IMG/VR virus record: IMGVR_UViG_3300030319_000074
Span: 1-30,248 of that record
Strand: one strand, 5' to 3'
Length of the DNA: 30,248 bases
Origin: a virus
Part shown: positions 4,820-21,248 of the stretch, in pieces
Layout: each line of letters begins with the position of its first letter
How positions within the stretch are numbered: the stretch's first letter is position 1
Made by a program: the position numbers and the translations under genes
The notes under the pieces: model-generated
Databases searched by the model: none
What the model was told of the DNA's origin: nothing
What the model saw: the letters and a program-made list of their open reading frames with translations, nothing else

Positions 4820-5485
4820 TCATACCTCCATAAGTCTTAGTTTGAGTTCCAGTTTCTTTCGTTTGCGTATGTGATCCAGTGCTTTTTTGCGCTCCGCCGC
4901 AATCTCTCTGATCAATCCGTCAGAGATACTGCGTGCACTGATCTGTGTGGCATCATTGGCAGGGATAGATACTGCACTGACATCGTACAGCTTTCGAATT
5001 TTTGTGATAGTCCGTGTCACCGTAATGGTGTTGTGTTCCTTGTCCTCCACATACTCCGATTTCTGTTCTCCTACTACAAATCCAAACGACATTTTTGTCG
5101 TGTAGCCACCCTTGATTTCCTCGTACAACTGATTGCCGATGGTCGTACCAGACAGATCTGCCCGGAAATACAGCCCGATGTTGTCCGGGCTGAGTTCCAG
5201 TGTCTTGTTTGACGTTCTGGCAAACACTCTGCCCCTGTGGTCATACTGCATGATCACGTCAGACATATCGCAATCATCAAATGCTCTGCTGTCAATCTGT
5301 TCATAGACCTTGTAGTCCCCAAAATCATACAGCAGATATGGTTGATTGAATGTTGTTGCATAGCCGTCTGCGATCATGCCGGAATCATTATCGGAATTGC
5401 TGCACACGGAAAAACTCTGCATCAGCCGGTATTCCCGTCCGGCACTGAGCCGCTGCATCAGTTGTTCCATTTCCTGTTCTGTCAT
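4820..5485 (-). CDS. Prohead maturation protease, HK97 family (S78/U35)
   Basis: 221 aa. It has GYATTFNQPY...AFDDC...QYDHRG... motifs and a basic C-terminal tail. It lies between the portal and capsid genes. Confidence 0.85.
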   Translation of the reverse strand: MTEQEMEQLMQRLSAGREYRLMQSFSVCSNSDNDSGMIADGYATTFNQPYLLYDFGDYKVYEQIDSRAFDDCDMSDVIMQYDHRGRVFARTSNKTLELSPDNIGLYFRADLSGTTIGNQLYEEIKGGYTTKMSFGFVVGEQKSEYVEDKEHNTITVTRTITKIRKLYDVSAVSIPANDATQISARSISDGLIREIAAERKKALDHIRKRKKLELKLRLMEV

Positions 5486-6660
5486 TGCTCCACCTCGTCT
5501 TTCTGGTTTTCTTCGGTATCTTCCAGTTCCTCTGTGCGTTTATATTCGCCACGAATGGTGCGGACATCGCCGCCTTCCACTGGTGCTGCGTTGAATATCT
5601 CACGCACTTCATTGACGGAAAAGACACCTCTGTCCATCATCTGAGATGCCACTTTCAGTTTTTCTGTGGTGGACATATATTGCAGCCGGTTAGATGTCAG
5701 CATGATGCCGTTCCCGTTGGTGCGTTCCACAGGTGTGTAGACGCATTTTGTCATCACATCGGAAAACTGTATGGCAAACGGTTCTATGCAGCCCTCGTAG
5801 AACGCCTGCCACGCATCGCCGTATGCCTTACTTTGCAGCACATCTTCGTTCACGCCAAAATAGCTGTATACGTTGTTCTGAATCTGTGCCGCCTGCTCTT
5901 TGTCTACCGTGTAGGACGTTTGGGACAGCTGCTTGATGTCGCTGTAGGTGTTTGGGAACAACAGGATTCCGCCGCCGTCCGCTTCAAAATTCTCTCGTGA
6001 GAATCGCTTTCGCTCTTTCGCAAGGTCTTCCGGTTTGGTGAAATTGTTGATTCTCGCCATGAACCGGTAGGTGTTGCTGTTCTTAACTGCTTCGGTTATC
6101 GCCTGATTTTGTAAGTGGATCAATTCCATAGTCGGAGTCAGAGCCGCATTGCTGCTGCCGAAGAAATCGTCTTGATACTGAAATTTGGTCAGTATCCCAC
6201 AGCTGAGAAGTTCCACCGCTGCTGTTTCACCGGATGAAAACCGATACCGCAGAAACGGTTCGCCGTGTACATCAATGATGCTGCACTGTGACGGCAGCAC
6301 GGGATAGTATCCGGTGATTTCATCGTATGCTCCGAACACAGGGACAATAAACGCCGTATTCTGCATATCCAGAATGGTGGACAGGCGATAGAGAAACTGT
6401 CCCCACGTCTGCCACTCGTTTGGGCTTTGTTTCAGTCTTGTCCGCAGCTTGGGCTTTGCCGTGCCCATGATGTCTGCTTTCAGCTTGGAAATGTGCCTTG
6501 CCCGGACATCAATGGCAGACCGCACAAGTGCCGATTCGTATAGGCACCCGTGCCAGTTGGTGAATACCGGTGCATATCCGGTCAGCGTGCGGAAATACGA
6601 TGCAGCTGCCGCAGTGGATTTCGATGGACGATTGCCCCATAATTTTTGAAACAGCCCCAT
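5482..6660 (-). CDS. Portal protein, HK97 family
   Basis: I prefer the ATG at 6660 (MGLFQKLWGNRPS...), just after the TerL stop at 6665 and with GGAG upstream. The longer track ORF (to 6753) would overlap TerL by 89 nt. Confidence 0.85.
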   Translation of the reverse strand: MGLFQKLWGNRPSKSTAAAASYFRTLTGYAPVFTNWHGCLYESALVRSAIDVRARHISKLKADIMGTAKPKLRTRLKQSPNEWQTWGQFLYRLSTILDMQNTAFIVPVFGAYDEITGYYPVLPSQCSIIDVHGEPFLRYRFSSGETAAVELLSCGILTKFQYQDDFFGSSNAALTPTMELIHLQNQAITEAVKNSNTYRFMARINNFTKPEDLAKERKRFSRENFEADGGGILLFPNTYSDIKQLSQTSYTVDKEQAAQIQNNVYSYFGVNEDVLQSKAYGDAWQAFYEGCIEPFAIQFSDVMTKCVYTPVERTNGNGIMLTSNRLQYMSTTEKLKVASQMMDRGVFSVNEVREIFNAAPVEGGDVRTIRGEYKRTEELEDTEENQKDEVEQ

Positions 6661-9487: not shown

Positions 9488-9802
9488 TTATTTTACATTA
9501 CCAACCAATCTGTAAAGTTCTTCTGTAGTTCGCTTGATTTTTTCGTCAATGTATTCTTTTAAGCGTTTTTCTCGGTATTCTTTTAAGCGTTTTTCTCGTG
9601 GTGTATAAAACCACTTTGCTTTGAATTCTTCCACAGTTTTGAAATAGCTTTCTTTTGAAATATCGCAACTATCAGCCCACTCCAGATCATGTGCCAGTTT
9701 CGCAACATCCTGCATAAGGTCATTCAGTTCTGCATCTTTCATCTGTCCGCACAATTCATCTTGAATCGCTGAATAGATATATCCATGACTTCCACCGCTC
9801 AT
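9488..9802 (-). CDS. Hypothetical protein (contains a duplicated REKRLKEY octapeptide)
   Basis: 104-aa ORF with RBS GGGGGTGAG and tight packing with its neighbours. Confidence 0.6.
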   Translation of the reverse strand: MSGGSHGYIYSAIQDELCGQMKDAELNDLMQDVAKLAHDLEWADSCDISKESYFKTVEEFKAKWFYTPREKRLKEYREKRLKEYIDEKIKRTTEELYRLVGNVK

Positions 9803-9808
9803 TTTATC

Positions 9809-9958
9809 TCACCCCCACAACAGTGCAGCTATTCCAAGCATCACAGTCGCCCCAAGCAGAGCAAGTGCCGCCTTGTTCCAGCCTGCTCTGCTCAGACATT
9901 TTGCAATCAGCAGTCCGCTCGGAATCAGCAGCACAAGGATCAATGTCATCTGTCCCAT
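9809..9958 (-). CDS. Small membrane protein (two hydrophobic helices)
   Basis: I prefer the ATG at 9958 (GGAGGTG 8 nt upstream). The product is MGQMTLILVLLIPSGLLIAKCLSRAGWNKAALALLGATVMLGIAALLWG. Confidence 0.5.
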   Translation of the reverse strand: MGQMTLILVLLIPSGLLIAKCLSRAGWNKAALALLGATVMLGIAALLWG

Positions 9959-9965
9959 ACCGCAT

Positions 9966-10277
9966 TCACCTCCGCACCATGATTTCTTCTGTTGTGGTCG
10001 GGTATGCTTCGGTTTCTCCGGAAAGCACAGCATTCAAGTGTTCTTTCGCAGTTTCATACCTTGTCCTTGCTGCCCGCACTCGCTGTTCTGCTTCATCGAT
10101 TTTTCTGGCTGTGGGAAGCATGTCCTCGATCAGGCGGATTCCGCCAATTGCCCAGATCAGAGCAATGTCCGCATGTGTCACAATGCCGGGGTAAAAAATG
10201 TACACATAGTGGATCTTCTCAAATTCTTCTTCCGTGAACGGTTTGTCTGTCAGTCTTTTGAATTCTTCTTGCAGCAT
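9966..10277 (-). CDS. Hypothetical protein
   Basis: I prefer the ATG at 10277 (AAAGGAG 7 nt upstream), giving MLQEEFKRLTDKPFTEEEFEKIHYVYIF... The Arg-rich N-terminal extension in the track ORF looks non-coding. Confidence 0.55.
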   Translation of the reverse strand: MLQEEFKRLTDKPFTEEEFEKIHYVYIFYPGIVTHADIALIWAIGGIRLIEDMLPTARKIDEAEQRVRAARTRYETAKEHLNAVLSGETEAYPTTTEEIMVRR

Positions 10278-10405
10278 TTGCCTGCTCCTTTCTGCATATC
10301 TCGTTCGTAATATTCTGCCATGTATCTTCCGTAGCTTACGCCGTAGGCAGCTGCCTGCTTGATGCACCAGTTCAGCGTGCCTTTCTGCGGTTTCTTTTTC
10401 GCCAT
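10250..10405 (-). CDS. Small hypothetical protein (51 aa, below the ORF-track cutoff)
   Basis: ATG at 10405 with GGAGGAA at 10411-10417. The product is MAKKKPQKGTLNWCIKQAAAYGVSYGRYMAEYYERDMQKGAGKCCKKNSKD. It fills an otherwise empty gap. Confidence 0.4.
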   Translation of the reverse strand: MAKKKPQKGTLNWCIKQAAAYGVSYGRYMAEYYERDMQKGAGKCCKKNSKD

Positions 10406-10406
10406 G

Positions 10407-10610
10407 TTATTTCCTCCGTTTCTTGTACAGATCCCATTTTACTTTTCTGGCGGATTCTGCGAGAAATATGGTCGGGTCTGCAAGCTGCTCCTGCTTTCGA
10501 TTCTCCCGTATCTTCTCACGCTGCTTTGCGTACCGGATATATCGGTCACACATACTATGGCAGCCGATTTCACGTTCCAGACAGTTCTTGCATGGTGCTG
10601 TCATGGTCAA
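10407..10610 (-). CDS. Small Cys/His-rich hypothetical protein
   Basis: 67 aa with a CKNCLEREIGCHSMCDRY motif and a basic C-terminus. Its start overlaps the stop of the upstream gene. Confidence 0.6.
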   Translation of the reverse strand: MTMTAPCKNCLEREIGCHSMCDRYIRYAKQREKIRENRKQEQLADPTIFLAESARKVKWDLYKKRRK

Positions 10611-11140
10611 CCTCCAGATTTCGCATCACTTTTTTCAGGTTCATCAGCTGCCATTTTCAGCAGCCGCTTTAACTTCTCATTTTCCTCTTGCAACTCGATG
10701 ATGTATTCATCTTTGTGATCACAATGCACGCAACACAAGCCGGAGATATTTGCAAGCGGACTTTTGATTGCCAAGTTAATTCTCCATTGCTGCAATCGCT
10801 TTATGACACATTCTCGCTCTGCTTTTTCTTTCCGCAGTTTTTCTATGGTTTCAGCGGCGATGAACAGTGACTTGATTGCTTCGGTTGCAATGCTATCCGT
10901 TACTTGATCGGAAAGCTTTTTTCGTTTCCCAGTTTCATTTTCCTGTTGCCGTCTGTTCCAAGCCAGACACGCCTTGTACTTATTCTCATACCATTCGCCG
11001 GTGCTGTTATGCACGCCGCATTTAGAACAGAACAGCTTGTAATCATGTCCCTCACTAGGGTCAATTTCATAAATATCGCTGATTACGGGAACAGCACCAC
11101 ATACTGCACACCGCATCAGATGTTCTACCAGTTTTCCCAT
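10607..11140 (-). CDS. Lar-family (restriction alleviation)-like zinc-ribbon protein with coiled-coil C-terminal half
   Basis: The N-terminus CAVCG...YKLFCSKCGVHNSTGEWYENKYKACLAWNRR matches the Lar-family pattern C-x2-C...C-x2-C...A-x2-WNRR. Confidence 0.5.
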   Translation of the reverse strand: MGKLVEHLMRCAVCGAVPVISDIYEIDPSEGHDYKLFCSKCGVHNSTGEWYENKYKACLAWNRRQQENETGKRKKLSDQVTDSIATEAIKSLFIAAETIEKLRKEKAERECVIKRLQQWRINLAIKSPLANISGLCCVHCDHKDEYIIELQEENEKLKRLLKMAADEPEKSDAKSGG

Positions 11141-11141
11141 G

Positions 11142-11579
11142 TTACCACCTCTCTTGTCCTTTTGGGCTTAATGCCATTGCTTCTGAAATGTCCACGATCC
11201 GCACATACAGTCCGGGGTGTTCCTTGTGCCAGATTTTTTCGATGTGCTCTCTGGCTACCAGTGCATCATCTTTCCAGTATCCCAAACCGGTCATGACATC
11301 TTTCAACGCTTTGTTCAGATTGTCTGTGTCCGGTCGGGTGGTCTTATACTCGCCGTCAACGTGCGTCTTTCCCTTGTACGGGAATCGCCATGTGACATAC
11401 AGTGCCACTGCTCCGGTCAGCGGCTTTCTGGGCGTATACGGTGCAAGCACCAGCCGGAGCAGCTGTTTCGCCGCTTTTGCCTGTTTGCTTTCGTATACAA
11501 TCACTCTGCCGTTTTTTTGAGTGTACTGCTTTTCTTGGGCGGTGGAACGGGGCGGGTCAAACTGTACGTTGATTTCCAT
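11142..11579 (-). CDS. rusA: RusA-family Holliday junction resolvase
   Basis: 145 aa. The segment TTRPDTDNLNKALKDVMTGLGYWKDDALV is the characteristic RusA motif. RBS AGGAGG. Confidence 0.85.
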   Translation of the reverse strand: MEINVQFDPPRSTAQEKQYTQKNGRVIVYESKQAKAAKQLLRLVLAPYTPRKPLTGAVALYVTWRFPYKGKTHVDGEYKTTRPDTDNLNKALKDVMTGLGYWKDDALVAREHIEKIWHKEHPGLYVRIVDISEAMALSPKGQERW

Positions 11580-12288
11580 GAGTATCCTCCTGCTCTGTGT
11601 TAAAGATCAGCTGCCGCACAGCATCATCTCTGCCGCCCCATTGCTGTGCCATGGCTTGTGCGACGCCTAAAAACGTCTTGCTCCTGCTTTTGGCTCTGTC
11701 TTTTGTAAAAAGCCCTTTATGCTTGGCATTGTGCTTATGGCTGTAGCTGCCGGATGGGCAAAAAGTACTGATAGGCTCGACTGTTTCGGTTGGCACCAGC
11801 TTCGGAAGATTTTTCAGCCAAAGGCATGTCCTTTTGCTGTACGGATGCCCGAATTCATACGGCTGTATAGTCTGCGTATATCTCGGCAGCTCATACACTT
11901 TGCTCGGGACAGGATTTTCGACGCAGATTCTTTCGCAGTCTGCATTCAAAAATTCCATAAAAAAAGCTTTGCCCGTCAATCCTTTTTCGTACCGTTCCCG
12001 ATTCAAAACGTGATTTTTCCACAGATGTCTTGCTCCCGCATTGCTGAGATAGGTGCACGGCGGATGTGCAATCAGTATATCCCATCTTCTGTCTATTGTA
12101 TGTGACTTTCCGTCACACGTAGTAAATGTGCACTTCCCATTTATCAGAGGGATAACATCCTGCATAATATGCCACTCTGGATGTCCGCCGGAGCACTTCT
12201 GCACGTCACAGCTGTATGCTTCGTGTCCTAGCACTCTAAATGCGGTACACACTCTTTGAGATTCTTCACATGCTACCAGTACTTTCAT
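11557..12288 (-). CDS. DNA cytosine-C5 methyltransferase-like protein, atypical motif I
   Basis: It has AHPPCTYLSNAG (motif IV-like PC), ENPV (motif VI-like) and FLGVAQAMAQQW (motif X-like). The N-terminus reads VLVACEESQ instead of the usual F-x-G-x-G. Confidence 0.55.
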   Translation of the reverse strand: MKVLVACEESQRVCTAFRVLGHEAYSCDVQKCSGGHPEWHIMQDVIPLINGKCTFTTCDGKSHTIDRRWDILIAHPPCTYLSNAGARHLWKNHVLNRERYEKGLTGKAFFMEFLNADCERICVENPVPSKVYELPRYTQTIQPYEFGHPYSKRTCLWLKNLPKLVPTETVEPISTFCPSGSYSHKHNAKHKGLFTKDRAKSRSKTFLGVAQAMAQQWGGRDDAVRQLIFNTEQEDTHGNQRTV

Positions 12289-13360
12289 TTTCTTTCACCT
12301 CTTCCAGGCATCCGGGAAAAGCCAGTTGCTTTGGCTCGTAGTACTCATCTTCCCACTCGACACCAATCCAGTCCAGCACACGTCCCCAGCCGTATTTCTC
12401 CCCATTTGCATCAGTACAGCAGCGGTACATCCAGTACTCCCACTCTTTGGGATTGTCCTCCCGCAGACGGTCAAACCGATGCGGGCGTTTTTCGATATGG
12501 ATACCGAAGCCACACATGGAACAGCCTGTGCGTTGTGCTCTTGTGGTGTACAACGTCCCGTCAGGCTTTCTTGCGATTTCGCCGTATGCTCTCGGTACTG
12601 GTACATCCAGATCAATCGCCAGCTGTAGCAGATCTTGTCTGGTGAAAGTCGCAAACGGGCAGCTTCTGGTCACGTTTTTTCCGTAGTAATTGCACCCGTT
12701 TTTTATCAACGCCATTTCCCGTTGTCCGCCTTCCGATGCCATAAGTCCAAGATACGGCACGCTGTTGTGTGCTTTTGCCCAGTCATCACAAGGCTTTTCT
12801 TTCATGTAGTAGCAGCATCGAGATGACACTTGAAAATCCGGTGCCGGTCTGATTTCCAGATCTGGCCTCATGTCGCGGTAGTTACCACCAAAAAGCTTGA
12901 TCCACTTGTCTTGCAGCTTGATGCGGTCACTGTGCTTATATCCGCCCTGCTTGCCCATATCTCCGGTCATGATCGCATGGATAAACGTCTGCTTTTCTGC
13001 ATCCGGATGTAGCAGATAACTGATTTTGGTCGCCTTTGCCTTGCTTACCACAGGAAACCCGAGTTGCTGCAAGACCTGTGCCTTGCCCATGTACGGCTTG
13101 ATACTGATCACGCCAAGCTGCTTGTGAACCTCCTGATTTCCCTTGTCCTCCAGTACACTGACGGAAATTGCCGGCACATCAATGCCGATGCTCCGCAAAA
13201 AAACCAGCAGCGTGATGCTGTCCAGTCCACCGACGCTGACATGGCACTCTTTGCCCTCTCTGGTGATCTTCTTATAAAACTCCCACGCTCTGCATTCAAC
13301 AAATGTTAATTTCTGTGCATACGGCAACGACTGGATTTGCAAAAAATCCCTGATGTTCAT
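12266..13360 (-). CDS. PAPS reductase / PP-loop ATP pyrophosphatase family protein (DndC/IbrA-like)
   Basis: PP-loop-like HVSVGGLDSITLL and a C-terminal RTGCSMCGFGIHIE...RFDRL. I prefer the ATG at 13360 (GAGGTGA 8 nt upstream) over the TTG at 13384. Confidence 0.8.
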   Translation of the reverse strand: MNIRDFLQIQSLPYAQKLTFVECRAWEFYKKITREGKECHVSVGGLDSITLLVFLRSIGIDVPAISVSVLEDKGNQEVHKQLGVISIKPYMGKAQVLQQLGFPVVSKAKATKISYLLHPDAEKQTFIHAIMTGDMGKQGGYKHSDRIKLQDKWIKLFGGNYRDMRPDLEIRPAPDFQVSSRCCYYMKEKPCDDWAKAHNSVPYLGLMASEGGQREMALIKNGCNYYGKNVTRSCPFATFTRQDLLQLAIDLDVPVPRAYGEIARKPDGTLYTTRAQRTGCSMCGFGIHIEKRPHRFDRLREDNPKEWEYWMYRCCTDANGEKYGWGRVLDWIGVEWEDEYYEPKQLAFPGCLEEVKENESTGSM

Positions 13361-13368
13361 GATTGTTT

Positions 13369-14160
13369 TCACCTCAATCTCCAATTCTTTTCATCACTTC
13401 TCATTATCGCGAACAGATACCCGCCGCAGCGTTCCTTGATACGTCCTGCCAACGCTTTGTCCGCCGCCAGCAGATCCCGAAAGATGCGCTCACTGGAAAC
13501 GATGGTGACCATGTTCCGGGTGTACCGCTCATTCAGCAGCTCAAACGCAATGCTGATTTCTTTTGGATTTGTATCACTGACATTGCCGCCGATCGGCTTC
13601 AGGAAATCGTCTATGTACAACACTTGTGCCTGTGTCAGCTGCTGAAAACGTTCCTGTCTGGTAGCAAATTGGCTTAGATCGCGAAAAACTGTCTGCCACA
13701 TCTCATACCGCACTTGCAGTCCTCTCTGGAGCAGGACACCACAGACAGCAGTGCACAGATGCGTTTTGCCTGCTCCACTTTGTCCGCCGATATACAGCCA
13801 TTGCGAACGGTTCTTTTCCGCATAGTGCATCACGTTTTCTTTCAGTGCGGTTTGCCAGTCTTCTTTGCACTGATATGCATCAAATGTTTTGGTGCGTATC
13901 GTTTCTGCCAATCCGGACTGTGTGATGTTGGACTGATTCTGCCGAATCGCCATGCACTCGCAGATACGGTGCATTTCTACGCCGTCCTGCAAGTAGGCGA
14001 TGCTGCCCTTGTTCCGGCACTTAGGGCAATCATATCCGGTAAGGCTGCCCCGTGATTGATTGTACCAGTCACACCGCATCTTGTCATAGGATTCCGGTGT
14101 GATTCCGGCATCAGAATTTTGTTTCCCAGCGATCTGCAACAGGTTCTGAATTGCTTCCAT
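13369..14160 (-). CDS. DnaC/IstB-like AAA+ helicase loader with N-terminal zinc ribbon
   Basis: Walker A GGQSGAGKTH, Walker B VLYIDDF, and CPKCRNKG...CEC near the N-terminus. I prefer the ATG at 14160 (GGAGGTG 6 nt upstream). Confidence 0.8.
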   Translation of the reverse strand: MEAIQNLLQIAGKQNSDAGITPESYDKMRCDWYNQSRGSLTGYDCPKCRNKGSIAYLQDGVEMHRICECMAIRQNQSNITQSGLAETIRTKTFDAYQCKEDWQTALKENVMHYAEKNRSQWLYIGGQSGAGKTHLCTAVCGVLLQRGLQVRYEMWQTVFRDLSQFATRQERFQQLTQAQVLYIDDFLKPIGGNVSDTNPKEISIAFELLNERYTRNMVTIVSSERIFRDLLAADKALAGRIKERCGGYLFAIMRSDEKNWRLR

Positions 14161-14920
14161 ACTTTTCACCTCCACGGTTCCACTCACTCCGCTCCCACGT
14201 TCTCACAGCTGCTTTCCAGTCTTTCATAGGGGACTTTCCAACACGCCATCCGTTTGATTCATAGTAATTCCAAAATCGTTCTGGATCTACGCTGTTTTGC
14301 CTGCTCTGACAGTAGACTCTGATATCTTCCAGCGTTGGCTTTACAAATCGTTTTTTGGGAGGGTGTGTGTCAGTCGGCTTGTCCGACTGTGCACCTGTAC
14401 TCTCCCTCTTATCTACTCTTATCTTATCTTCTCTACTCTTCTCTACGTTACCTGTAACGTTACAAGGCGTTTCTCCTGTGTTACATTGTAACATTTCAGG
14501 CATTTCTGCTGTACAAGGCAACGCAACAGTAACTTCTGCTTCCAGTTGTTTCTGCTTTTGTTTTTCACGGAATTTCCGTACTCTTTCCGCGCTGCTGCTT
14601 TCCGAGCCAATGGCTTCATTGGCTTCCGGCATAAAGTAAACTGATTTACTTTTTTCAATCAACTTGCCGGAGCGCAGCAGAAAACCGATTGCAACTCTGA
14701 CATTATCTTCATCTTCGTCCAGGGCAAGTGCCAGTTCAGCCGCAAAGTCGTTTTCAATGCCGTCAAAGTACAGTTCGCCCTCTGTCTGAATGCTCATCAG
14801 CATCATTTTTAGATAGATGATGACATAGGTGTCACCTCCGGCAATGCGCCGCATTTTCTTCATGGCTTTATCGCGGAAAAAGTCTTCCCGGAGTTTCAGC
14901 CAAAAATATCTTCTTGACAT
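14111..14920 (-). CDS. Phage replisome organizer (DnaD-like N-terminal domain)
   Basis: The N-terminus MSRRYFWLKLREDFFRDKAMKKMRRIAGGDTYVIIYLKMML matches the phage replisome-organizer N-terminal family. It lies upstream of the DnaC-like loader. Confidence 0.75.
   Translation of the reverse strand: MSRRYFWLKLREDFFRDKAMKKMRRIAGGDTYVIIYLKMMLMSIQTEGELYFDGIENDFAAELALALDEDEDNVRVAIGFLLRSGKLIEKSKSVYFMPEANEAIGSESSSAERVRKFREKQKQKQLEAEVTVALPCTAEMPEMLQCNTGETPCNVTGNVEKSREDKIRVDKRESTGAQSDKPTDTHPPKKRFVKPTLEDIRVYCQSRQNSVDPERFWNYYESNGWRVGKSPMKDWKAAVRTWERSEWNRGGEKYGSNSEPVADRWETKF
14371..14520. repeat. Cluster of inverted and direct repeats inside the replisome organizer gene (candidate origin)
   Basis: Inverted repeats: CAGTCGG-5-CCGACTG (14371-14389), ACGTTAC-ct-GTAACGT (14445-14460), the palindrome GTAACGTTAC (14454-14463) and TGTTACA-t-TGTAACA (14479-14493). 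Direct repeats: CTACTCTT twice (14413, 14433) and TACAAGGC twice (14461, 14512). Confidence 0.4.
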
Positions 14921-15138
14921 GATGATCCCTCCTGTTTTCCCATCTTACAGCCGTTTTCTTCTGTCCAGTCGCAGCTGTTTTCTGTTTCCTGGCATTCGCT
15001 GCACAGCATGATTTTTTTGCCGCAAAATGGGCAGTATGCAGCAAAGCCGTCCTGCGCTGTGTCCCAGCGTACAGTGACTTCATTTGTGCAGTTTGGGCAT
15101 AATTCCGTGACAAAATCTGTTTCGCAGTAAAAATACAT
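14896..15138 (-). CDS. Small Cys-rich zinc-ribbon protein
   Basis: I prefer the ATG at 15138 (GAGGTG 9 nt upstream). The product starts MYFYCETDFVTELCPNCTNEV...YCPFCGKKIMLCSECQ... The upstream part of the 143-aa track ORF has no RBS and a poor composition. Confidence 0.55.
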   Translation of the reverse strand: MYFYCETDFVTELCPNCTNEVTVRWDTAQDGFAAYCPFCGKKIMLCSECQETENSCDWTEENGCKMGKQEGSSCQEDIFG

Positions 15139-15619
15139 GATTGATATCACCTCTTTTGCAATAGATTTGTGGATGGACGCTGATCTGCTCAACGTCCCAG
15201 AAGCACCAGCACGGCTAAACATGGCCATGCGTTTACAGGTATTCAGCCGCCTGTGGTCGCTGTTGCACCGTATGAACGGATTCCGCAGTTCTGGCAACTC
15301 AGATGGTGGAATGATCCGGAATTGCACCGGATGTGCTGAGACTGGACATTCTCTGCCGTGACTACACCATTCCGTCTGCGGCAGAGTAATTCCGCCGCAG
15401 GAGTAAGAAGGGGAGACCTATGTCAATTGAAAATGTTGGAACAGCGTGCCGGAGTTGCACCGGCAATCCGTGGGGATGGAAGTCCCACAGTATGACTGCA
15501 TCGCTGTATATGCGGCGGCATTGCCAGTACCACCGCATAGATAATAGAAAGGAGGTTTGCCATGTAATGGCTTTTGAAGATGTTGGAGAGCGGTTTTGCG
15601 TCATGCTCAGGACGGTGTG

Positions 15620-15811
15620 TTATTTCTCCAGCAACAGGTCTTTCAGTTGTTTCATCCGGCATTCCACCTGCTCATGTGTATCGAATGTTTCTGTGGCTAT
15701 TGTCTCTATTTCTGAGAGATAGCATACTTTGTTTAGGATGTTGCCGGCGACAATGGCTATTACAGCATCTAAATTTATTAGATCACCGTCCTTCAATTCA
15801 ATCCATTTCAT
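15620..15811 (-). CDS. Hypothetical protein
   Basis: 63 aa with GAGGTG 5 nt before the ATG, and a start/stop overlap with the upstream gene. Confidence 0.55.
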   Translation of the reverse strand: MKWIELKDGDLINLDAVIAIVAGNILNKVCYLSEIETIATETFDTHEQVECRMKQLKDLLLEK

Positions 15812-16104
15812 GCAGACACCTCATGATTGGTATGTTCAAGTTCTTCATCGGCATGGATATATTTGTTTAGATCCTGTCCGTCATAGTCTTCCAAAAATTG
15901 CAGGAAGGTGGACACGCGGCATTTGTAAGATCCAAGCTTCATGAAGCGGATCACGCCGGCTTGACGCAGTTTATGTACCGCAGCAATGTTGCATTTTAGC
16001 AAAGATGCGACATCTTTTACTGTGAGCAGCTGTTCTGGAATGGGCTGCAAAGTGATTGTCGTGTCTTTCGATGTAAACACATCTTCTTTAATGATTTCTC
16101 TCAT
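15808..16104 (-). CDS. Excisionase-family (MerR-like) HTH DNA-binding protein, candidate Xis
   Basis: LLTVKDVASLLKCNIAAVHKLRQAGVIRFMKLGSYKCRVSTFLQFLE matches the excisionase-family HTH pattern. Confidence 0.6.
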   Translation of the reverse strand: MREIIKEDVFTSKDTTITLQPIPEQLLTVKDVASLLKCNIAAVHKLRQAGVIRFMKLGSYKCRVSTFLQFLEDYDGQDLNKYIHADEELEHTNHEVSA

Positions 16105-16279
16105 GGGTTACTCCTTCCTTGAAAATGTCCGCTTGTATGGGACTTCCGTGCTTGTCCAGCTGTGCAAATTCTCGGTGCGTAGTGTGCCGGCACTGCCACT
16201 GACAGGCAGCTTTGCAGCAAATGGTGTTCTTCTCTGGATTGCATAGGAATACGGGTTTTTGATATGAGATCTTACGCAT
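16088..16279 (-). CDS. Small Cys-rich hypothetical protein
   Basis: ATG at 16279 with GAGGT 8 nt upstream. The product contains FLCNPEKNTICCKAACQWQCRHTTHREFA. Confidence 0.45.
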   Translation of the reverse strand: MRKISYQKPVFLCNPEKNTICCKAACQWQCRHTTHREFAQLDKHGSPIQADIFKEGVTHERNH

Positions 16280-16502
16280 CTTCAATTACCTCACCGTACA
16301 GGAACTCTTCCAGATTTTCCAGTGTTGCCCCTGCATTCAGCAGCTGTTTTCCTCTTTTTTCGTAGTACCGAAGTTGATACAGATACTGGCGGCGTTTGTA
16401 CTTGATTCGCTGTTCCCTTCGTGCGATCTGTACTTCTTCAGAATTGCTTAGACGTTGGATTTCCATTTCAATCTGTTCGTCTGTCAGGTCTTCTTTTCGC
16501 AT
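16272..16502 (-). CDS. Hypothetical protein
   Basis: 76 aa, charged and helical, with AAAGGAG upstream. It overlaps the end of the Cro-like gene. Confidence 0.6.
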   Translation of the reverse strand: MRKEDLTDEQIEMEIQRLSNSEEVQIARREQRIKYKRRQYLYQLRYYEKRGKQLLNAGATLENLEEFLYGEVIEDA

Positions 16503-16696
16503 AGATACATATCTCCTTTCAAGATCTCATCTGTTGTACAGTGCAGGATTTCTGCCATTTCTCTTACTTTTTGCAAACTTGGATTGCGCACTCCGGTTTC
16601 CCATTGGCTAATTGCGTTTGGTGTTACATGCAGCAATTTTGCAAGTTTTACTTGTGACAATCCTTGTGCTAGTCGGATGTTTCTAATGTAAATCAT
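16484..16696 (-). CDS. Cro-like XRE-family HTH regulator (first gene of the lytic operon)
   Basis: 70 aa. IRNIRLAQGLSQVKLAKLLHVTPNAISQWETGVRNPS is a canonical XRE HTH. It is divergent from the repressor gene. Confidence 0.8.
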   Translation of the reverse strand: MIYIRNIRLAQGLSQVKLAKLLHVTPNAISQWETGVRNPSLQKVREMAEILHCTTDEILKGDMYLCEKKT

Positions 16697-16714
16697 TTCG
16701 TCACCTCTGCATTG

Positions 16715-16832
16715 CTAACGTTCTGTTAGGATTATAACACACGTTCCGTTAGAATGTCAATAGTAATTCTAACTTTTCGTTAGTATACACAAAACGTGAG
16801 CGATTTTATTGACAATTCTAACAGTTTGTGAT
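16715..16832. promoter_or_regulatory. Operator set: 15-bp CTAAC-N5-GTTAG palindromes
   Basis: Perfect copies at 16715-16729 and 16769-16783. Degenerate copies at 16738-16752 (CACAC-N5-GTTAG) and 16818-16832 (CTAAC-N5-GTGAT). They overlap both promoters. Confidence 0.5.
16731..16760 (-). promoter_or_regulatory. Early lytic promoter (TTGACA-18 nt-TATAAT with TGn)
   Basis: The minus strand has TTGACA (plus 16755-16760) and TGtTATAAT (TATAAT at plus 16731-16736). Confidence 0.6.
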
Positions 16833-16837
16833 ATTAT
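16809..16837 (+). promoter_or_regulatory. Lysogeny-operon promoter (TTGACA-17 nt-TATTAT)
   Basis: TTGACA at 16809-16814 and TATTAT at 16832-16837, upstream of the repressor RBS. Confidence 0.6.
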
Positions 16838-16860
16838 AACAATAGACGGAGGTGAGATCT

Positions 16861-17202
16861 ATGTTTGCAGATAAATTAAAGGAATTGCGTGCGATAAATG
16901 GACTGACTCAGGCAGAATTTGCACATGAGTTTTCTATTTCTAACGGAACAATTGCGATGTGGGAAACAGGAAAACGGACACCTGACATTGAAACAATCAA
17001 GCGTATTGCAAACTACTTCAACGTTTCCGTAGATTATCTCGTTGATAACGATGAAGAAAGGCATTCTGTGTCGGAGAAAGACATCAAATTTGCCTTATTC
17101 CACGGTGCTGATGGAATCACCGATGAAATGTATGCAGAGGTCAAGCAGTTTGCTGAAATGGTCAAGCTGCGTGAGGAAAATAAGCGAAAGGATAAAAAAT
17201 GA
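16861..17202 (+). CDS. CI/ImmR-like XRE-family repressor (no S24 peptidase domain)
   Basis: ATG at 16861 lies 6 nt after GGAGGTG (16848-16854); the track start at 16852 is a GTG inside the RBS. HTH: LRAINGLTQAEFAHEFSISNGTIAMWETGKRTP. Confidence 0.8.
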   Translation: MFADKLKELRAINGLTQAEFAHEFSISNGTIAMWETGKRTPDIETIKRIANYFNVSVDYLVDNDEERHSVSEKDIKFALFHGADGITDEMYAEVKQFAEMVKLREENKRKDKK

Positions 17203-17609
17203 ACCTCGATGATCTATATCATATTGCAGACGTTGAAAATATAGAAGTCATACCGTTTCCGCTTCCAAAGACAAAATCCTTGTCGATACAGACCGATGAT
17301 TTTGATTGCTATATTGGCATGGACGACAGCGAAATGCCAACCAATGCAGAAAAAAAGACCCGGCTCGCTCATGAGCTGGGTCACTGCACACAGGGTGCAT
17401 TTTATAATCGTTGGAGCAACTTTGATTTGATCAGTCGCCACGAATACCGTGCTGACAGATGGGCTTGTGAAAAGCTGATCCCGAAAGAGGAAATGGAAAT
17501 TGCTATGAAAAAAGGGTATTGTGAAGTTTGGCAACTTGCAGAATACTTCGATGTGACGGAAGAACTGGTGCGAAAAGCGTGCTGGATCTATTTTGATAAG
17601 ATTTTTTGA
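17199..17609 (+). CDS. immA: ImmA/IrrE-family zinc metalloprotease (anti-repressor protease)
   Basis: HEXXH motif in RLAHELGHC. 136 aa. ATGA start/stop overlap with the XRE repressor gene. Confidence 0.8.
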   Translation: MNLDDLYHIADVENIEVIPFPLPKTKSLSIQTDDFDCYIGMDDSEMPTNAEKKTRLAHELGHCTQGAFYNRWSNFDLISRHEYRADRWACEKLIPKEEMEIAMKKGYCEVWQLAEYFDVTEELVRKACWIYFDKIF

Positions 17610-17630
17610 GATGAAACGGGGTAAAATACA

Positions 17631-18980
17631 ATGATGAATACATTGGGATTGACAGAGCAAGAAAAAATAGCTCTGAAAATAATAGAAAAGGCTTTTGAAT
17701 CGAATAACTTGGATTTTGCAAAAATCTCGTTGGATCGCAGAAGTTCCAGCTATCTTTCTTTATTGACAAAAGAAGAATGGGAGCCGGGTGCTGATTTTTG
17801 CAGATTAAAAGCTGGTGTAAAATCTGTATGGATTTCTCTGGATACTTGGTGTTGTCCGAAAGAATTTACTTCGAGTGATCGATTCTCTAATGTTGTAAAT
17901 AAGAATCAGAGGCATTGGAAAATAGATTTGCCTTCTTTGAACAGCATTGCTGAAATTTGCGATCTAATCATAGATGTGTACTTGTATTCTATCGGGGAAT
18001 CTCCTTTAAAGAATGCATTGCAAACTCCTGATCTTACTGAAGAAAGTACTTCCAATAGTCAAAGTACATGCAGAAAGAAAGGGCATCGCTTAACAACATT
18101 ACCGCAGGATTATGTGGTGATTGATTTGGAAACAACAGGCTTAGATACAAGATTCTGCGAAATTATTGAACTGTCTGCTGTTCTTGTACGTAATGATGAA
18201 ATCGCAGATATTTTCCATTCTCTTGTGAAGCCAGTTGAAAAAGTGGGGGAGTTTGTTGAAAATTTAACGGGAATTACAAACGAAATGCTGACAAATGCAC
18301 CTAGTGTAGATGCTGCACTTCCAGAGTTCCTACGTTTTGTTGGAGATAACATTGTGATAGGTCATAATGTTAATTTTGACATCAATTTTATCTATGATTA
18401 TAAAATGAAAATCGATGGCAATCCATTTCGCAATGATTATGTTGATACTCTGCAAATTGCAAGAAAAGCATTGCCGCAATTATCGCATCACCGCTTAAAA
18501 GACATTGCTGAGTATTTATCCTTTGATTTTGCTACACAGCATAGAGCAACCGAAGACTGCATGATGACATATCAATGTTATCTGAAACTAAAAGACATTG
18601 TAATTGAAAATGGTATCGATTTGACTAGCTTAAAAAAGGATCACAACAAGATAAAAGCCAAAAATGTACTGGCTGCTACTGAAAATTTTGACGAAAACCA
18701 TTTGCTGTTTGGAAAAGTTTGCGTTTTCACAGGAAAGCTTGAAAAAATGGATCGTGCAAAAGCAATGCAAATTGTTGCAAATATCGGCGGGATCAATGCA
18801 GATAACGTTACGAAAAAGACGAATTATTTGATACTCGGAAACAACGATTTTTGTAGTTCACTAAAAGGCGGGAAAAGCTCGAAACAAAAGAAAGCAGAAA
18901 AGCTTGCATTAGAGGGGCAAGATATTCAGATTATATCTGAGAATGTATTCTATGAGATGGTTTCAGAATCACAGGGATAA
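17631..18980 (+). CDS. Three-part protein: unknown N-terminal domain + DEDDh (DnaQ-like) 3'-5' exonuclease + C-terminal BRCT domain
   Basis: ExoI VVIDLETTG, ExoII IGHNVNFDINF, ExoIII HRATEDC. BRCT-like LFGKVCVFTGKL...KKTNYLILG...KAEKLALEGQDIQIISE. I recognise no motif in residues 1 to about 150. Confidence 0.75.
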   Translation: MMNTLGLTEQEKIALKIIEKAFESNNLDFAKISLDRRSSSYLSLLTKEEWEPGADFCRLKAGVKSVWISLDTWCCPKEFTSSDRFSNVVNKNQRHWKIDLPSLNSIAEICDLIIDVYLYSIGESPLKNALQTPDLTEESTSNSQSTCRKKGHRLTTLPQDYVVIDLETTGLDTRFCEIIELSAVLVRNDEIADIFHSLVKPVEKVGEFVENLTGITNEMLTNAPSVDAALPEFLRFVGDNIVIGHNVNFDINFIYDYKMKIDGNPFRNDYVDTLQIARKALPQLSHHRLKDIAEYLSFDFATQHRATEDCMMTYQCYLKLKDIVIENGIDLTSLKKDHNKIKAKNVLAATENFDENHLLFGKVCVFTGKLEKMDRAKAMQIVANIGGINADNVTKKTNYLILGNNDFCSSLKGGKSSKQKKAEKLALEGQDIQIISENVFYEMVSESQG

Positions 18981-18983
18981 TCT

Positions 18984-19559
18984 ATGAAATACTGTATGAA
19001 TTGCGGTACGCAAAATGAGGATACGGCAAAACACTGTTCTAACTGCGGCAAAGCATTCCCAGCTCCGCAGCCAGACTTCATCGCTCCGAATCTTCCGGAT
19101 CCGGATGACTGGCACTGGGATAAGTCGAAAAAACGGCATAAAAAATCCCACCATTCGTCAGGACGAAAAGTGGGTGCTGGGTTCGGCTGTCTGGTCGTCA
19201 TTGTCGTAGTTGCCGCTGTGATCACAGTGCTGTGTATGCTGTTTTCCAACGGGAAAAGTAAGAACGATGCCGCTGTAAAGCCGCAGTCCAGTTCAGAAGC
19301 GGAACAGCCGGCTGACAGTGGTATGATTTCTCCGGAACTGTTTCGGGGCATTCTGGAAGATTCGTTTCAAAACCAAGAGGGGTTGTCTGATGTATCTGTA
19401 CAGTATGACAGTGATCTGAATTATTACACGATCAATCTGACGGCAGACGGCATCGTTGTAGATGTGACAAAGTCCAAGCTGACCGGGGACATCCAGAAAT
19501 GGAATGAGTTGCTGTCTGTCATGAATGGTACGACATTGTATGATTGCATGGAGGAATGA
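18984..19559 (+). CDS. Zinc-ribbon, single-pass membrane protein (candidate superinfection-exclusion factor)
   Basis: It has MKYCMNCGTQNEDTAKHCSNCG, then a TM helix GFGCLVVIVVVAAVITVLCMLF and a C-terminal domain of about 100 aa. The start is 3 nt after the upstream stop. Confidence 0.65.
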   Translation: MKYCMNCGTQNEDTAKHCSNCGKAFPAPQPDFIAPNLPDPDDWHWDKSKKRHKKSHHSSGRKVGAGFGCLVVIVVVAAVITVLCMLFSNGKSKNDAAVKPQSSSEAEQPADSGMISPELFRGILEDSFQNQEGLSDVSVQYDSDLNYYTINLTADGIVVDVTKSKLTGDIQKWNELLSVMNGTTLYDCMEE

Positions 19560-19602
19560 ACTAATATTTTAAACCAGCAGCGAAAGGGGGTGAGAAATTA
19601 AA

Positions 19603-20853
19603 ATGTCAAAAAAAGTTATGACACGAAAGCGTGGCAATTGGTGGTCATATCGTTTTGAAGGTGCAATGGTCGATGAAAAGCGTCAGTGGATCACACGGAG
19701 CGGCTTTCACACGAAGAAAGAAGCCTATGATGCGGGGATTGCAGCGTATCAAGAATACCAGAGCAGCGGCTTGAAATTAACGCCTACAGAACTATCTGTT
19801 GCGGATTTTATGGACTACTGGCTCAAGGAATACTGTGAAGTGAACCTAAAAGAAACGACTGTTTTAAATTACCGCAAAAAAGTCAAGAATATCATTAAGC
19901 CACATATCGGGAAATATCGTCTTCGTTCAATTCAAACAGCTACAATCCAAAAAATGATCTATGATCTGTTTCAAAGCGGTTATGCTAGGAACACATTAAC
20001 CGTTGTAAAAGGGATCCTGACAAAATCTTTTGCTTATGCAAAAGCAAATCATTTTATCAAGGACAATCCAATGTGTGAAGTGGAACTACCTCGGAGTACG
20101 GCAAAGCCAAACGTAAAAAGCCGCAGAAAAGAGAGAAGCTACATTCCAAAAGAACGTATTGCAGAAATATTTCAACGTTTTCCGGAAGGCAGCTCTACGT
20201 ATTTACCGTTGTTGCTAGGCTATCGATGCGGCTTGCGTCTTGGTGAAGCGTATGCACTTCAATGGAAAGATATTGATTTTCAGAAAAAGACATTGACTGT
20301 GCAAAGGCAAATTCAGTATGTCGAAAAGAAAATCGATACTTTTCAAAAAAGCGTCCTGTATTTTTCAGAACCCAAGTATAATAGTTTTCGGACAATTCAG
20401 CTGGATTCCGAAACACTTGGGGTACTGGAAAAACTGAAAAGTCAGCAGAAAAGCAACCGTGAAGAATATGCAGAGTTTTACTGCCGCTATTTTGAAACGC
20501 CGGAACGAACTGCTGCCAGTGATCCAGAACCACATATATTGAATACTGATGGTATTGGTGAGGAAATATTCTTTCTGAATGTAAATGCCGATGGAAGCTA
20601 TATACGCCCACGAACGATGCAACACACATCTTATGTGATTCATACGGAATTGGACTTCCCTGAGTTTGACTTTCATAGTCTGCGACATACGCACTGTACA
20701 GAACTGTTAGAAGCCGGATTTTCTCCGAAAGCAGTTCAGATGCGTTTAGGTCACAAGGACATCAAAACTACTCTGAACATTTATGAGCACATCACACAAT
20801 CACAAGAAGATAAAGCCGCAATGATATTGGAAGATATGTATTCTTCTGATTGA
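19603..20853 (+). CDS. int: Tyrosine site-specific integrase
   Basis: 416 aa. It has LLLGYRCGLRLGEA (Arg box), HSLRHTHCTELLEAG and LGHKDIKTTLNIYEH (His/Tyr box). RBS AAAGGGGGTGAG. Confidence 0.9.
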   Translation: MSKKVMTRKRGNWWSYRFEGAMVDEKRQWITRSGFHTKKEAYDAGIAAYQEYQSSGLKLTPTELSVADFMDYWLKEYCEVNLKETTVLNYRKKVKNIIKPHIGKYRLRSIQTATIQKMIYDLFQSGYARNTLTVVKGILTKSFAYAKANHFIKDNPMCEVELPRSTAKPNVKSRRKERSYIPKERIAEIFQRFPEGSSTYLPLLLGYRCGLRLGEAYALQWKDIDFQKKTLTVQRQIQYVEKKIDTFQKSVLYFSEPKYNSFRTIQLDSETLGVLEKLKSQQKSNREEYAEFYCRYFETPERTAASDPEPHILNTDGIGEEIFFLNVNADGSYIRPRTMQHTSYVIHTELDFPEFDFHSLRHTHCTELLEAGFSPKAVQMRLGHKDIKTTLNIYEHITQSQEDKAAMILEDMYSSD

Positions 20854-20872
20854 CCACATTTTGACCACATTC
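20848..20872 (+). repeat. Two tandem copies of the 11-mer TGACCACATT(T/C), overlapping the int stop codon
   Basis: The 24-mer GATTGACCACATTTTGACCACATT at 20848-20871 recurs exactly at 21168-21191. Confidence 0.7.
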
Positions 20873-21125
20873 TGATTCTATTCAATAAAATTTGGAACGA
20901 ATCAGAAAACAATGATTTAAAGCCGACAATTCGAGAAAACAACGCATTTTCCATTGTATTTAAGCATTGGGAAATCTTAATTTGATATAAAAAAGAAAAT
21001 GCATTTAGCATGGGCAACAACCCGATGGTTGGCGCGACTGTTGCTGTTGCAGTATCTGTTGAAGAAGCTGCTAAGGCTGGCAAATTCTAAGCAATTGCGT
21101 GGTTTTTTTCGAAACAGCAAAAATG

Positions 21126-21164
21126 AGCGTATCCCGACCAAATAGGTCGAGATACGCTTTTTTT
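21126..21164. terminator. Bidirectional intrinsic terminator
   Basis: AGCGTATCCCGACC-aaat-aGGTCGAGATACGCT forms a stem of about 14 bp with one mismatch. It is followed by T7 on the + strand and preceded by A5, which gives a T-run on the - strand downstream of the endolysin. Confidence 0.7.
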
Positions 21165-21167
21165 GCC

Positions 21168-21208
21168 GATTGACCACATTTTGACCACATTTTTTGAAAT
21201 GTGGTCAA
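21168..21208. repeat. Two tandem direct copies plus one inverted copy of the 11-mer TGACCACATTT
   Basis: Direct copies at 21171-21181 and 21182-21192. Inverted copy AAATGTGGTCA at 21197-21207. Confidence 0.7.
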
Positions 21209-21248
21209 TCCGTATTTGGTATTTGCAAGCCAATTTGCCATTGGCAAA

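Follow-up and report, generated by a model that had tools for sequence, protein, structure and literature searches.

The 30,248-nt stretch of viral DNA analyzed here, called the window throughout (positions 1 to 30,248 of the IMG/VR virus record IMGVR_UViG_3300030319_000074), carries an immunity operon with two cargo genes between a repressor/ImmA pair and an integrase, where an earlier reading made from the letters alone (the sequence-only reading) had placed them. Open reading frames (ORFs) and Pfam matches give the order HTH_3 repressor, ImmA, exonuclease, zinc-ribbon transmembrane protein (Zn-ribbon-TM) and tyrosine integrase, all on the plus strand (Table 1). The start of the ImmA gene overlaps the stop codon of the repressor gene, and the Zn-ribbon-TM ORF begins 3 nt past the exonuclease stop codon. 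Our main subject is the first cargo gene, whose 449-amino-acid (aa) product joins an N-terminal domain, here called domain X, to a DEDDh exonuclease and a BRCT domain.

Both C-terminal assignments of the sequence-only reading, a protein with all three DEDDh motifs and a terminal BRCT-like domain, were borne out. Pfam RNase_T matches aa 162-316 of the 449-aa protein (E 2.4e-37), and the catalytic residues are present in the ExoI motif (VVIDLETTG, aa 162-170; D165 and E167), the ExoII motif (HNVNFDINF, aa 245-253; D250) and the ExoIII motif (HRATEDC, aa 304-310; H304 and D309), giving a DEDDh active site that is intact as predicted from its residues. By sequence the exonuclease domain was nearest to the PolC, DinG and DnaQ DNA exonucleases, the closest solved structure being the PolC exonuclease domain 2p1j (E 9e-35, aa 160-326). 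The BRCT domain scores above the Pfam cutoff (PF00533, aa 362-420, E 3.2e-5, 24.5 bits vs 21.3) and matches the NCBIfam LigA model (E 1.4e-10, aa 340-425), PHROG DNA-ligase families and the BRCT of RFC1 in the PDB (E 3e-6). Given the intact catalytic residues, the DNA-exonuclease relatives and the LigA/RFC1-like BRCT, the enzyme looks active and DNA-directed.

The exonuclease gene is an independently mobile single-gene cargo ("moron") of the immunity operon, lying on the same strand between repressor and integrase and variably present among otherwise collinear phages. Two sister phages, L021 and L022, share 85-91% nucleotide identity with the window on both flanks and have the gene order repressor, ImmA, Zn-ribbon-TM, integrase, the exonuclease gene being absent. 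By blastn, window 16931-17628 corresponds to L021 5298-6001 and window 18974-19518 to L021 5991-6535 (89-91% identity); the intervening segment, window 17629-18973, is therefore a precise one-gene insertion. The cassette sits between the Zn-ribbon-TM ATG and its ribosome-binding site, with ribosome-binding-site-like microhomology at both cassette ends in the junction alignment, and the 3-nt spacing of the two genes arises because the cassette inserted just upstream of this pre-existing ATG. The guanine-plus-cytosine (GC) content of the cassette is 0.359, vs 0.41-0.48 in the flanks, 48% in the adjacent Zn-ribbon-TM gene and 0.47 genome-wide, and the composition profile of the window falls to 0.36 at 17500-19000. 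The low GC content is consistent with recent acquisition from a lower-GC donor.

Table 1. Features of the immunity operon and its surroundings in the window (HTH, helix-turn-helix)
Feature	Position	Strand	Description
Divergent promoter pair of the lysis/lysogeny switch	16731-16837	both	Consensus scan
Minus-strand promoter-like site	16760-16731	-	TTGACA-18-TATAAT, 12/12 consensus matches
Plus-strand promoter-like site	16809-16837	+	TTGACA-17-TATTAT, 11/12 consensus matches; would drive the immunity operon
CI-like HTH repressor gene	16852-17202	+	116 aa, heads the operon; Pfam HTH_3 E 8.4e-17, Phage_CI_repr E 8e-5
ImmA-type metalloprotease gene	17199-17609	+	136 aa, Peptidase_M78; PF06114 E 2.5e-8
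Single-gene cassette	17629-18973	+	1.35 kb; present in the window, absent from L021 and L022
Exonuclease-BRCT gene	17631-18980	+	449-aa ORF carrying domain X, DEDDh and BRCT
Domain X	17631-17990	+	aa 1 to ~120 (~115 aa), alpha/beta; unmatched in four family libraries
DEDDh (DnaQ/PolC-type) 3'-5' exonuclease domain	18108-18608	+	aa 160-326
BRCT domain, LigA/RFC1 type	18699-18965	+	aa 357-445
Zn-ribbon-TM gene	18984-19559	+	191-aa ORF; Zn ribbon, single transmembrane helix, ectodomain
Tyrosine integrase gene	19603-20853	+	416 aa, last gene of the operon; Phage_integrase E 9e-25, Phage_int_SAM_3 E 5e-13
attP region	20841-21210		Identity to integrated L020 stops at window 21107; repeats around the junction

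The N-terminal ~150 residues, in which the sequence-only reading had recognized nothing, likewise gave zero matches for aa 1-150 in Pfam, PHROGs, NCBIfam and PADLOC. The domain X profile found nothing among PDB sequences, and no copy was detected by tblastn in 50,697 GenBank phage records. The conserved motif reads ERRSxNYLTL..DFCRxK..KWxSLDxW..NKNQRHWKI, and basic and aromatic residues dominate the invariant positions (R58, K60, W67, N90, W96 and K97; motif NKNQRHWK), a composition that would suit nucleic acid or phosphate binding. An AlphaFold2 (AF2) model from a 16-sequence alignment is confident, with a predicted local distance difference test score (pLDDT) of 92, a predicted template modelling score of 0.86 and the topology alpha-beta4-(alpha)-beta-alpha. 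Of the routes named in the sequence-only reading for placing this domain, PADLOC returned no family, and Foldseek on the AF2 model returned weak YjbR/MotA-like folds (template modelling score, or TM score, ~0.5), namely DR2400/DUF419, Escherichia coli YjbR, the C-terminal DNA-binding domain of T4 MotA and YdhG/DUF1801. The best match in the viral Foldseek library was a DUF5655 protein (E 5e-4). For DR2400, YjbR and this viral protein the Foldseek probability was 0.97-1.0, with E 5e-4 to 0.04 and 12-15% identity, and Pfam DUF5655 appeared below threshold in 1 of 143 X members. The possibility that X is a PD-(D/E)xK nuclease, raised by a D..R.K motif and an alpha-beta-beta-beta topology, was set aside, Foldseek giving no nucleases and only the YjbR/MotA-like folds.

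A HMMER search of 1.84 billion representative proteins recovered 334 domain X clusters, of which the best 143 underlie the architecture counts given here. Stand-alone X proteins of <170 aa account for 93 of the 143, RNase_T is present in 27 and BRCT in 19. The order of domains is shuffled (X-exo-BRCT, exo-BRCT-X, BRCT-exo-X, exo-X-exo and BRCT-X), with X N-terminal in eight homologues and C-terminal after BRCT in eight others. Domain X is also fused to HIRAN, as X-HIRAN-TM2 (P0173) and X-HIRAN-Zn-ribbon-TM2 (L029), and to Zn ribbons or transmembrane (TM) segments, as Zn-ribbon-2TM-exo-X (L025 and P0151), Zn-ribbon-2TM-X, Zn-ribbon-X and X-2TM. The viral contig L029 (5914-7245) encodes X, HIRAN, a proline-rich linker, a Zn ribbon and TM2 in one polypeptide between repressor and integrase; P0173 joins X, HIRAN, a proline-rich linker and TM2. 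The HIRAN region of the X-HIRAN protein weakly matches PADLOC PDC-M03B.

Every X locus examined, about a dozen distinct contexts including fused and stand-alone forms, occupies the repressor-to-integrase slot, with the layout divergent HTH gene, repressor, optional ImmA, X protein, optional cargo, and tyrosine or serine recombinase. The contig L032 has the same order and ends before any recombinase. Domain X is rare, occurring in eight IMG/VR contigs and in 2 of 185,579 species-representative genomes, both metagenome-assembled, one from Oscillospiraceae and the other from Clostridia. It is a previously undescribed domain confined to the immunity slot of gut and rumen Clostridia phages and, to judge from its shuffled fusions, anchors and immunity slot, behaves like a module of conflict systems. 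In L011 (6398-6853) and L013 (3692-4147), homologous 151-aa multi-TM proteins are encoded between a stand-alone X gene and the integrase; the two are 46% identical, have no Pfam or PADLOC match and may form a pair with X.

The exonuclease-BRCT (exo-BRCT) part belongs to a much larger family. The query has more than 3,000 protein matches, the majority being exo+BRCT proteins of 300-340 aa with 50-64% identity. The exo-BRCT gene lies directly downstream of the repressor in Streptococcus pneumoniae IPP phages, Staphylococcus aureus phi2958PVL and Campylobacter CJIE4, and S. aureus phages 47 and LH1 also have exo-BRCT matches. In Moraxella Mcat9 and the Streptococcus satellite Javan542 the gene immediately before it is unannotated; this gene opens the plus-strand operon at the divergent switch and is probably the repressor. 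In Clostridia, every examined locus with a site-specific recombinase has exo-BRCT directly downstream of the repressor, one of the short forms lying in a prophage after a LexA-like repressor. In a transposable phage of Clostridia, seen at five different chromosomal sites, exo-BRCT is grouped with HTH regulator genes at an end of the element. The contigs L014-L018 (gene 5001-5936) all encode P0114, an exo-BRCT protein of 311 aa that is identical among them and appears in 132 contig-index blocks, and this transposable phage has an rve transposase and a diversity-generating retroelement (RVT_1 and bAvd).

At least 292 IMG/VR contigs encode exo-BRCT relatives. Among the 79 best IMG/VR loci, 57 have a repressor-like gene on the same strand no more than 2.5 kb upstream, 52 have an integrase on the same strand no more than 4.5 kb downstream, and 63 have one or both of these, all as lower bounds. 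The space between exo-BRCT and the integrase is hypervariable, holding toxin-antitoxin pairs (HicAB among the slot genes), ImmA genes, membrane proteins and lipoproteins, together with full-length homologues of PADLOC PDC-S25 (SIR2-like, E 9e-149; L043 6098-7636, also L079 and L080) and PDC-S13 (Bro-N, E 8e-114; L042 5945-6841). From this variable cargo we conclude that the slot is a cargo hotspot with defence-type genes, and the sequence-only reading was right to regard the two window genes as accessory cargo within it.

Other neighbors of the family deserve mention. The contig L006 (5039-7383) has two tandem DEDDh exonuclease genes after an S24 repressor, followed directly by a serine recombinase; the product of the first (302 aa) combines RNase_T with a long extension at the N-terminus, and that of the second is an X-exo-BRCT homologue. 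A cysteine-rich module (GCCxxYxxCSxxxxCxHxDxxxxxxCxYRxNLExGxxFYG) with no Pfam match occurs in proteins adjoining exo-BRCT in L005 (7380-7844), L010 (7182-7688), L007 (5138-5920) and L084 (5888-6412); three of the four full-length X-exo-BRCT contexts examined have it, as does one short exo-BRCT locus. It could be a more consistent neighbor of the exonuclease than the Zn-ribbon-TM protein. The 154-aa L005 protein downstream of the exonuclease, which shares this C-terminal module with the neighbors in L010, L007 and L084, was considered as a divergent X and rejected on poor alignment and 14% identity.

The element is a real prophage, and the carrier of the exonuclease cassette is a temperate phage of gut Clostridia. 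The window sequence is integrated in L020, a 117.9-kb human-gut contig, at 99.98% identity over window 9631-21107, with host genes beyond the junction at window position ~21107; the window is therefore an excised or circular form of this prophage. Five TTGACCACATTT copies flank the prophage/host junction (two at 20850-20872, two at 21170-21192 and one inverted at 21197-21210) and are probably the integrase arm-binding sites of attP. No close relatives were found among GenBank phages, only matches of ~65-100 nt. The promoter-like sites are pattern matches only, and their function is suggested by position between divergent HTH genes; a terminator scan found no strong plus-strand terminator between the plus-strand site and the end of the integrase gene. 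The minus-strand lysis genes have a terminator with a 14-bp stem at 21126-21158.

A defence or exclusion role is the best-supported reading of the exonuclease gene. We propose that the 449-aa protein is a putative lysogen-expressed nuclease attacking free DNA 3' ends of superinfecting phage, a proposal to which we give an even chance. The protein would be made in the lysogen from the repressor transcript, and its targets would be free ends, either of the entering linear genome or of replication or packaging intermediates of the superinfecting phage. Resection of the 3' strand of this DNA would fall to the exonuclease, while the BRCT domain, by its RFC1-type homology, would hold the 5'-phosphate end or nick, domain X would supply targeting or sensing, and some family members would work at the membrane. 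The BRCT region of RFC1 is reported to hold a 5'-phosphate DNA end or nick, and HIRAN domains and DEDDh exonucleases both act on free 3'-OH DNA ends. An end-resecting exclusion nuclease is favored because the circular lysogen chromosome has few free ends and the phage genome supplies them. Further support comes from nearly identical immunity regions of which some have the gene and others lack it, its junctions being precise and its GC content low, from a position after the repressor that is kept across phyla, and from a slot shared with defence-type cargo. The staphylococcal phage 80alpha reportedly carries an ejection protein proposed to protect the ends of injected DNA against exonucleases (PMC12323379).

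Several points weigh against this proposal. Our literature search turned up no work, functional or otherwise, on the repressor-linked exo-BRCT family or on domain X. PADLOC models match the exonuclease domain (PDC-S48, E 5e-30; Cas-associated DEDDh, E 3e-39) at the domain level only, PDC-S48 being covered at model positions 4-161 of 411 or 8-168 of 512, and the impression of the sequence-only reading that no named defence system has this architecture stands accordingly. The likeness of X to DNA-binding double-wing domains is weak, with a TM score of ~0.5 and no PDB match at E <= 0.001. Stand-alone X occurs without any nuclease, so that X must have an activity of its own that the model leaves unspecified. 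Expression of the exonuclease gene in the lysogen is read from operon layout only, and the IMG/VR counts, obtained with a small query library of our own making, contain some redundancy among the phages. A characterized exo+BRCT protein, mycobacterial DnaQ, is a replicative proofreader and not a defence enzyme (PMC11348249). Lastly, tight linkage to the repressor could equally reflect a role in lysogeny control.

Such a role, which the sequence-only reading had named as a DNA-damage or induction accessory, is the alternative that survives best, although we consider it unlikely. Acting on lesions in host or prophage DNA, the exonuclease would tune the timing of ImmA- or LexA-type repressor inactivation, either trimming 3' single-stranded DNA tails, which would dampen the RecA-dependent signal, or widening nicks to gaps, which would amplify it. 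The gene does lie nearly always right after the repressor, whatever the integrase type and even without an adjacent integrase, it co-occurs with S24 and ImmA-type repressors alike, and both BRCT domains and DEDDh exonucleases are characteristic of proteins that act in DNA damage and replication. However, L021 and L022 manage without it despite essentially the same repressor/ImmA pair, so the gene is dispensable for this switch; elsewhere unrelated cargo fills the slot, and the shuffling of X and the membrane-anchored variants are hard to reconcile with regulation.

A replication or repair accessory, that is, a trans-acting proofreader or repair exonuclease that, like mycobacterial DnaQ, uses its BRCT domain to dock on the replisome of host or phage and improves fidelity or end processing, is improbable. 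The labels of the family point this way: PHROG_192, which matches aa 140-444 (E 7.5e-55), and NCBIfam both read "DNA polymerase exonuclease / epsilon subunit", and the PolC proofreading domain is the nearest relative of the exonuclease domain. The scores fall far short of every NCBIfam equivalog cutoff, however (PRK06195 125.3 vs 373 bits, dnaQ_proteo 70 vs 222.7, polC 154 vs 1043), and the gene sits in the immunity operon while the replication module (Phage_rep_org_N and IstB-like genes) is on the opposite strand. Its variable presence among sister phages and its occurrence in satellites and transposable phages also speak against a replication function.

The sequence-only reading had treated the two cargo genes as a coupled module, and its description of the second product holds. 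The 191-aa protein has a Zn_Ribbon_1 match at aa 3-24 (E 2.4e-6), with CxxC at aa 4-7 and 18-21, and one hydrophobic helix at aa 63-87 followed by ~104 aa, close to the ~100-aa outer part first described. Neither a signal peptide nor a lipobox is present, the N-terminus being the predicted cytoplasmic Zn ribbon; there were zero PADLOC matches, PHROG matches were to families of unknown function only, and Foldseek against the PDB gave no credible match to the ectodomain, whose AF2 model is of moderate confidence (pLDDT 65-80). The suggested likeness to the exclusion proteins Ltp and Sie2009 did not survive these results, since Ltp has a signal peptide with a lipobox and position in the slot is all that the 191-aa protein shares with either. 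Only six homologous clusters were found, five of 225-229 aa and one a 167-aa gene call without the N-terminus. Compared with all six, the window copy has an in-frame deletion of ~114 nt (38 aa) in the ectodomain at 19513-19518, and an intact partner is present in the IMG/VR contig L026/L036, whose exonuclease gene is identical to that of the window. In the ectodomain model the deleted residues make up one helix and one strand, and their loss suggests that the window allele may be non-functional.

That the exonuclease and the Zn-ribbon membrane protein work only together, the latter sensing or tethering at the envelope, has a slim chance of being correct. The genes are 3 nt apart, the exonuclease gene of L026 is followed by its intact 229-aa partner, Zn-ribbon/TM modules are fused to X/exo proteins in L025, L029, P0151 and P0271, and two further, unrelated Zn-ribbon-TM families follow exo-BRCT genes, one in L047, L067 and L075 and the other in L110. 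Against this, the spacing stems from the insertion site and the partner in the window lacks 38 ectodomain residues. Moreover, the Zn-ribbon-TM gene stands alone in L021 and L022, four full-length X-exo-BRCT homologues lie in other prophages without this partner, and none of the 120 closest exo-BRCT homologues contains a Zn-ribbon or TM segment. Each gene being found without the other, they are not an obligate pair. The Zn-ribbon-TM gene is a separate, older resident cargo of this phage lineage and its product at most a facultative membrane tether. What survives of the proposed membrane link is thus not this particular pair but the recurrence of Zn-ribbon/TM modules with the family, by fusion or adjacency.

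Counter-defence or prophage protection, in which the exonuclease would degrade host immune nucleic acid (signalling oligonucleotides, retron multicopy single-stranded DNA or CRISPR prespacers), is very improbable: DEDDh enzymes trim prespacers as Cas2-DEDDh fusions (PDB 8fy9 match; PADLOC DEDDh model) and DEDD dinucleases occur on mobile elements (PMC11706625), but no specific evidence favors it, the BRCT and HIRAN associations suggest long DNA ends and not small oligonucleotides, and the ORFs and Pfam matches of the window include neither a Cas2 domain nor neighboring cas genes.

The exclusion nuclease reading can be extended to the family as a whole, in a form that we regard as possible though doubtful. 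Domain X would then define a new modular prophage exclusion family that intercepts injected genomes at or near the inner membrane face. It would sense or target the free end of incoming phage DNA and would be paired with interchangeable 3'-end modules (DEDDh exonuclease or HIRAN) and a 5'-phosphate-end BRCT, the Zn-ribbon-TM, TM2 or adjacent multi-TM proteins serving as membrane anchors. The repressor-linked exo-BRCT proteins of streptococcal, staphylococcal, Campylobacter and Moraxella prophages, which have no X, would be a simpler form of the same defence.

If the exclusion nuclease reading is true, a common prophage gene, present in at least 292 IMG/VR contigs and in prophages of pneumococci, S. 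aureus, Campylobacter and Moraxella, gains a function; what has been mislabelled "DNA polymerase III epsilon", "DNA ligase" or "DinG" would be a lysogen nuclease shaping superinfection, and a DNA-end-targeting nuclease would join the list of prophage-borne defences. Since X is fused to exonuclease, HIRAN and BRCT domains, it offers a testable handle on target recognition by such proteins. Were one of the rival explanations true, the gene would be a prophage modulator of induction or of host mutation rate, which matters for gut phage ecology.

Comparison with known systems places the gene more closely. The lambda rexAB genes are co-transcribed with the repressor gene cI, and rexAB and other prophage-borne defence genes such as BstA follow the logic predicted for the exonuclease gene, in which an accessory gene on an immunity transcript is made in the lysogen. 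None of them is known to share sequence or domains with the window protein, and the rexAB products are a membrane-based abortive-infection pair. The YjbR, DUF419, DUF1801, DUF5655 and T4 MotA C-terminal "double-wing" families have an alpha-beta sandwich topology similar to that predicted for X, but the likeness is weak (TM score ~0.5), and X is set apart by its invariant motif NKNQRHWK and by identities of 12-15%.

Among defence-linked exonucleases, the TONDO/ISG20-like prophage DEDDh exonucleases, a precedent for the proposed defence role, carry auxiliary domains and defend against RNA phages, and they are described as sequence-distinct from other defence-linked DEDDh domains (PMC13344964). 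A prophage DEDDh exonuclease with a variable auxiliary domain of unknown function is common to both. TONDO acts on RNA, whereas the window domain is PolC/DnaQ-like and BRCT-linked, which implies a DNA substrate. Likeness to PDC-S48 and Cas2-DEDDh is limited to the exonuclease domain and is a domain-level match, not system membership. The diDNase family (PMC11706625) belongs to another DEDD subfamily.

The closest architectural parallels are mycobacterial DnaQ (PMC11348249) and PRK06195, which share a DEDDh domain followed by a C-terminal BRCT, a ~300-aa core and intact catalytic motifs. The window protein differs in its additional N-terminal X, in its prophage immunity operon as opposed to a chromosomal housekeeping locus, and in scoring far below the PRK06195 equivalog cutoff. 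The architecture for which the sequence-only reading could name no defence system is thus not entirely new, the exo+BRCT combination being known already from these proteins. Nearest in context are the repressor-linked exo-BRCT proteins of the IPP phages, phi2958PVL, phage 47, CJIE4 ("dnaQ"), Mcat9 and Javan542, whose core is 26-44% identical to that of the window and whose genes likewise follow just behind a repressor, or what is probably one, in the same orientation. Their annotations range over exonuclease, DNA ligase, DinG and epsilon subunit; unlike the window protein, none of those in the GenBank phage records searched has domain X. Prophage immunity-operon cargo encoding a DnaQ-like exo-BRCT protein is thus known, and what is new is the fused, undescribed domain X with its informative fusion pattern.

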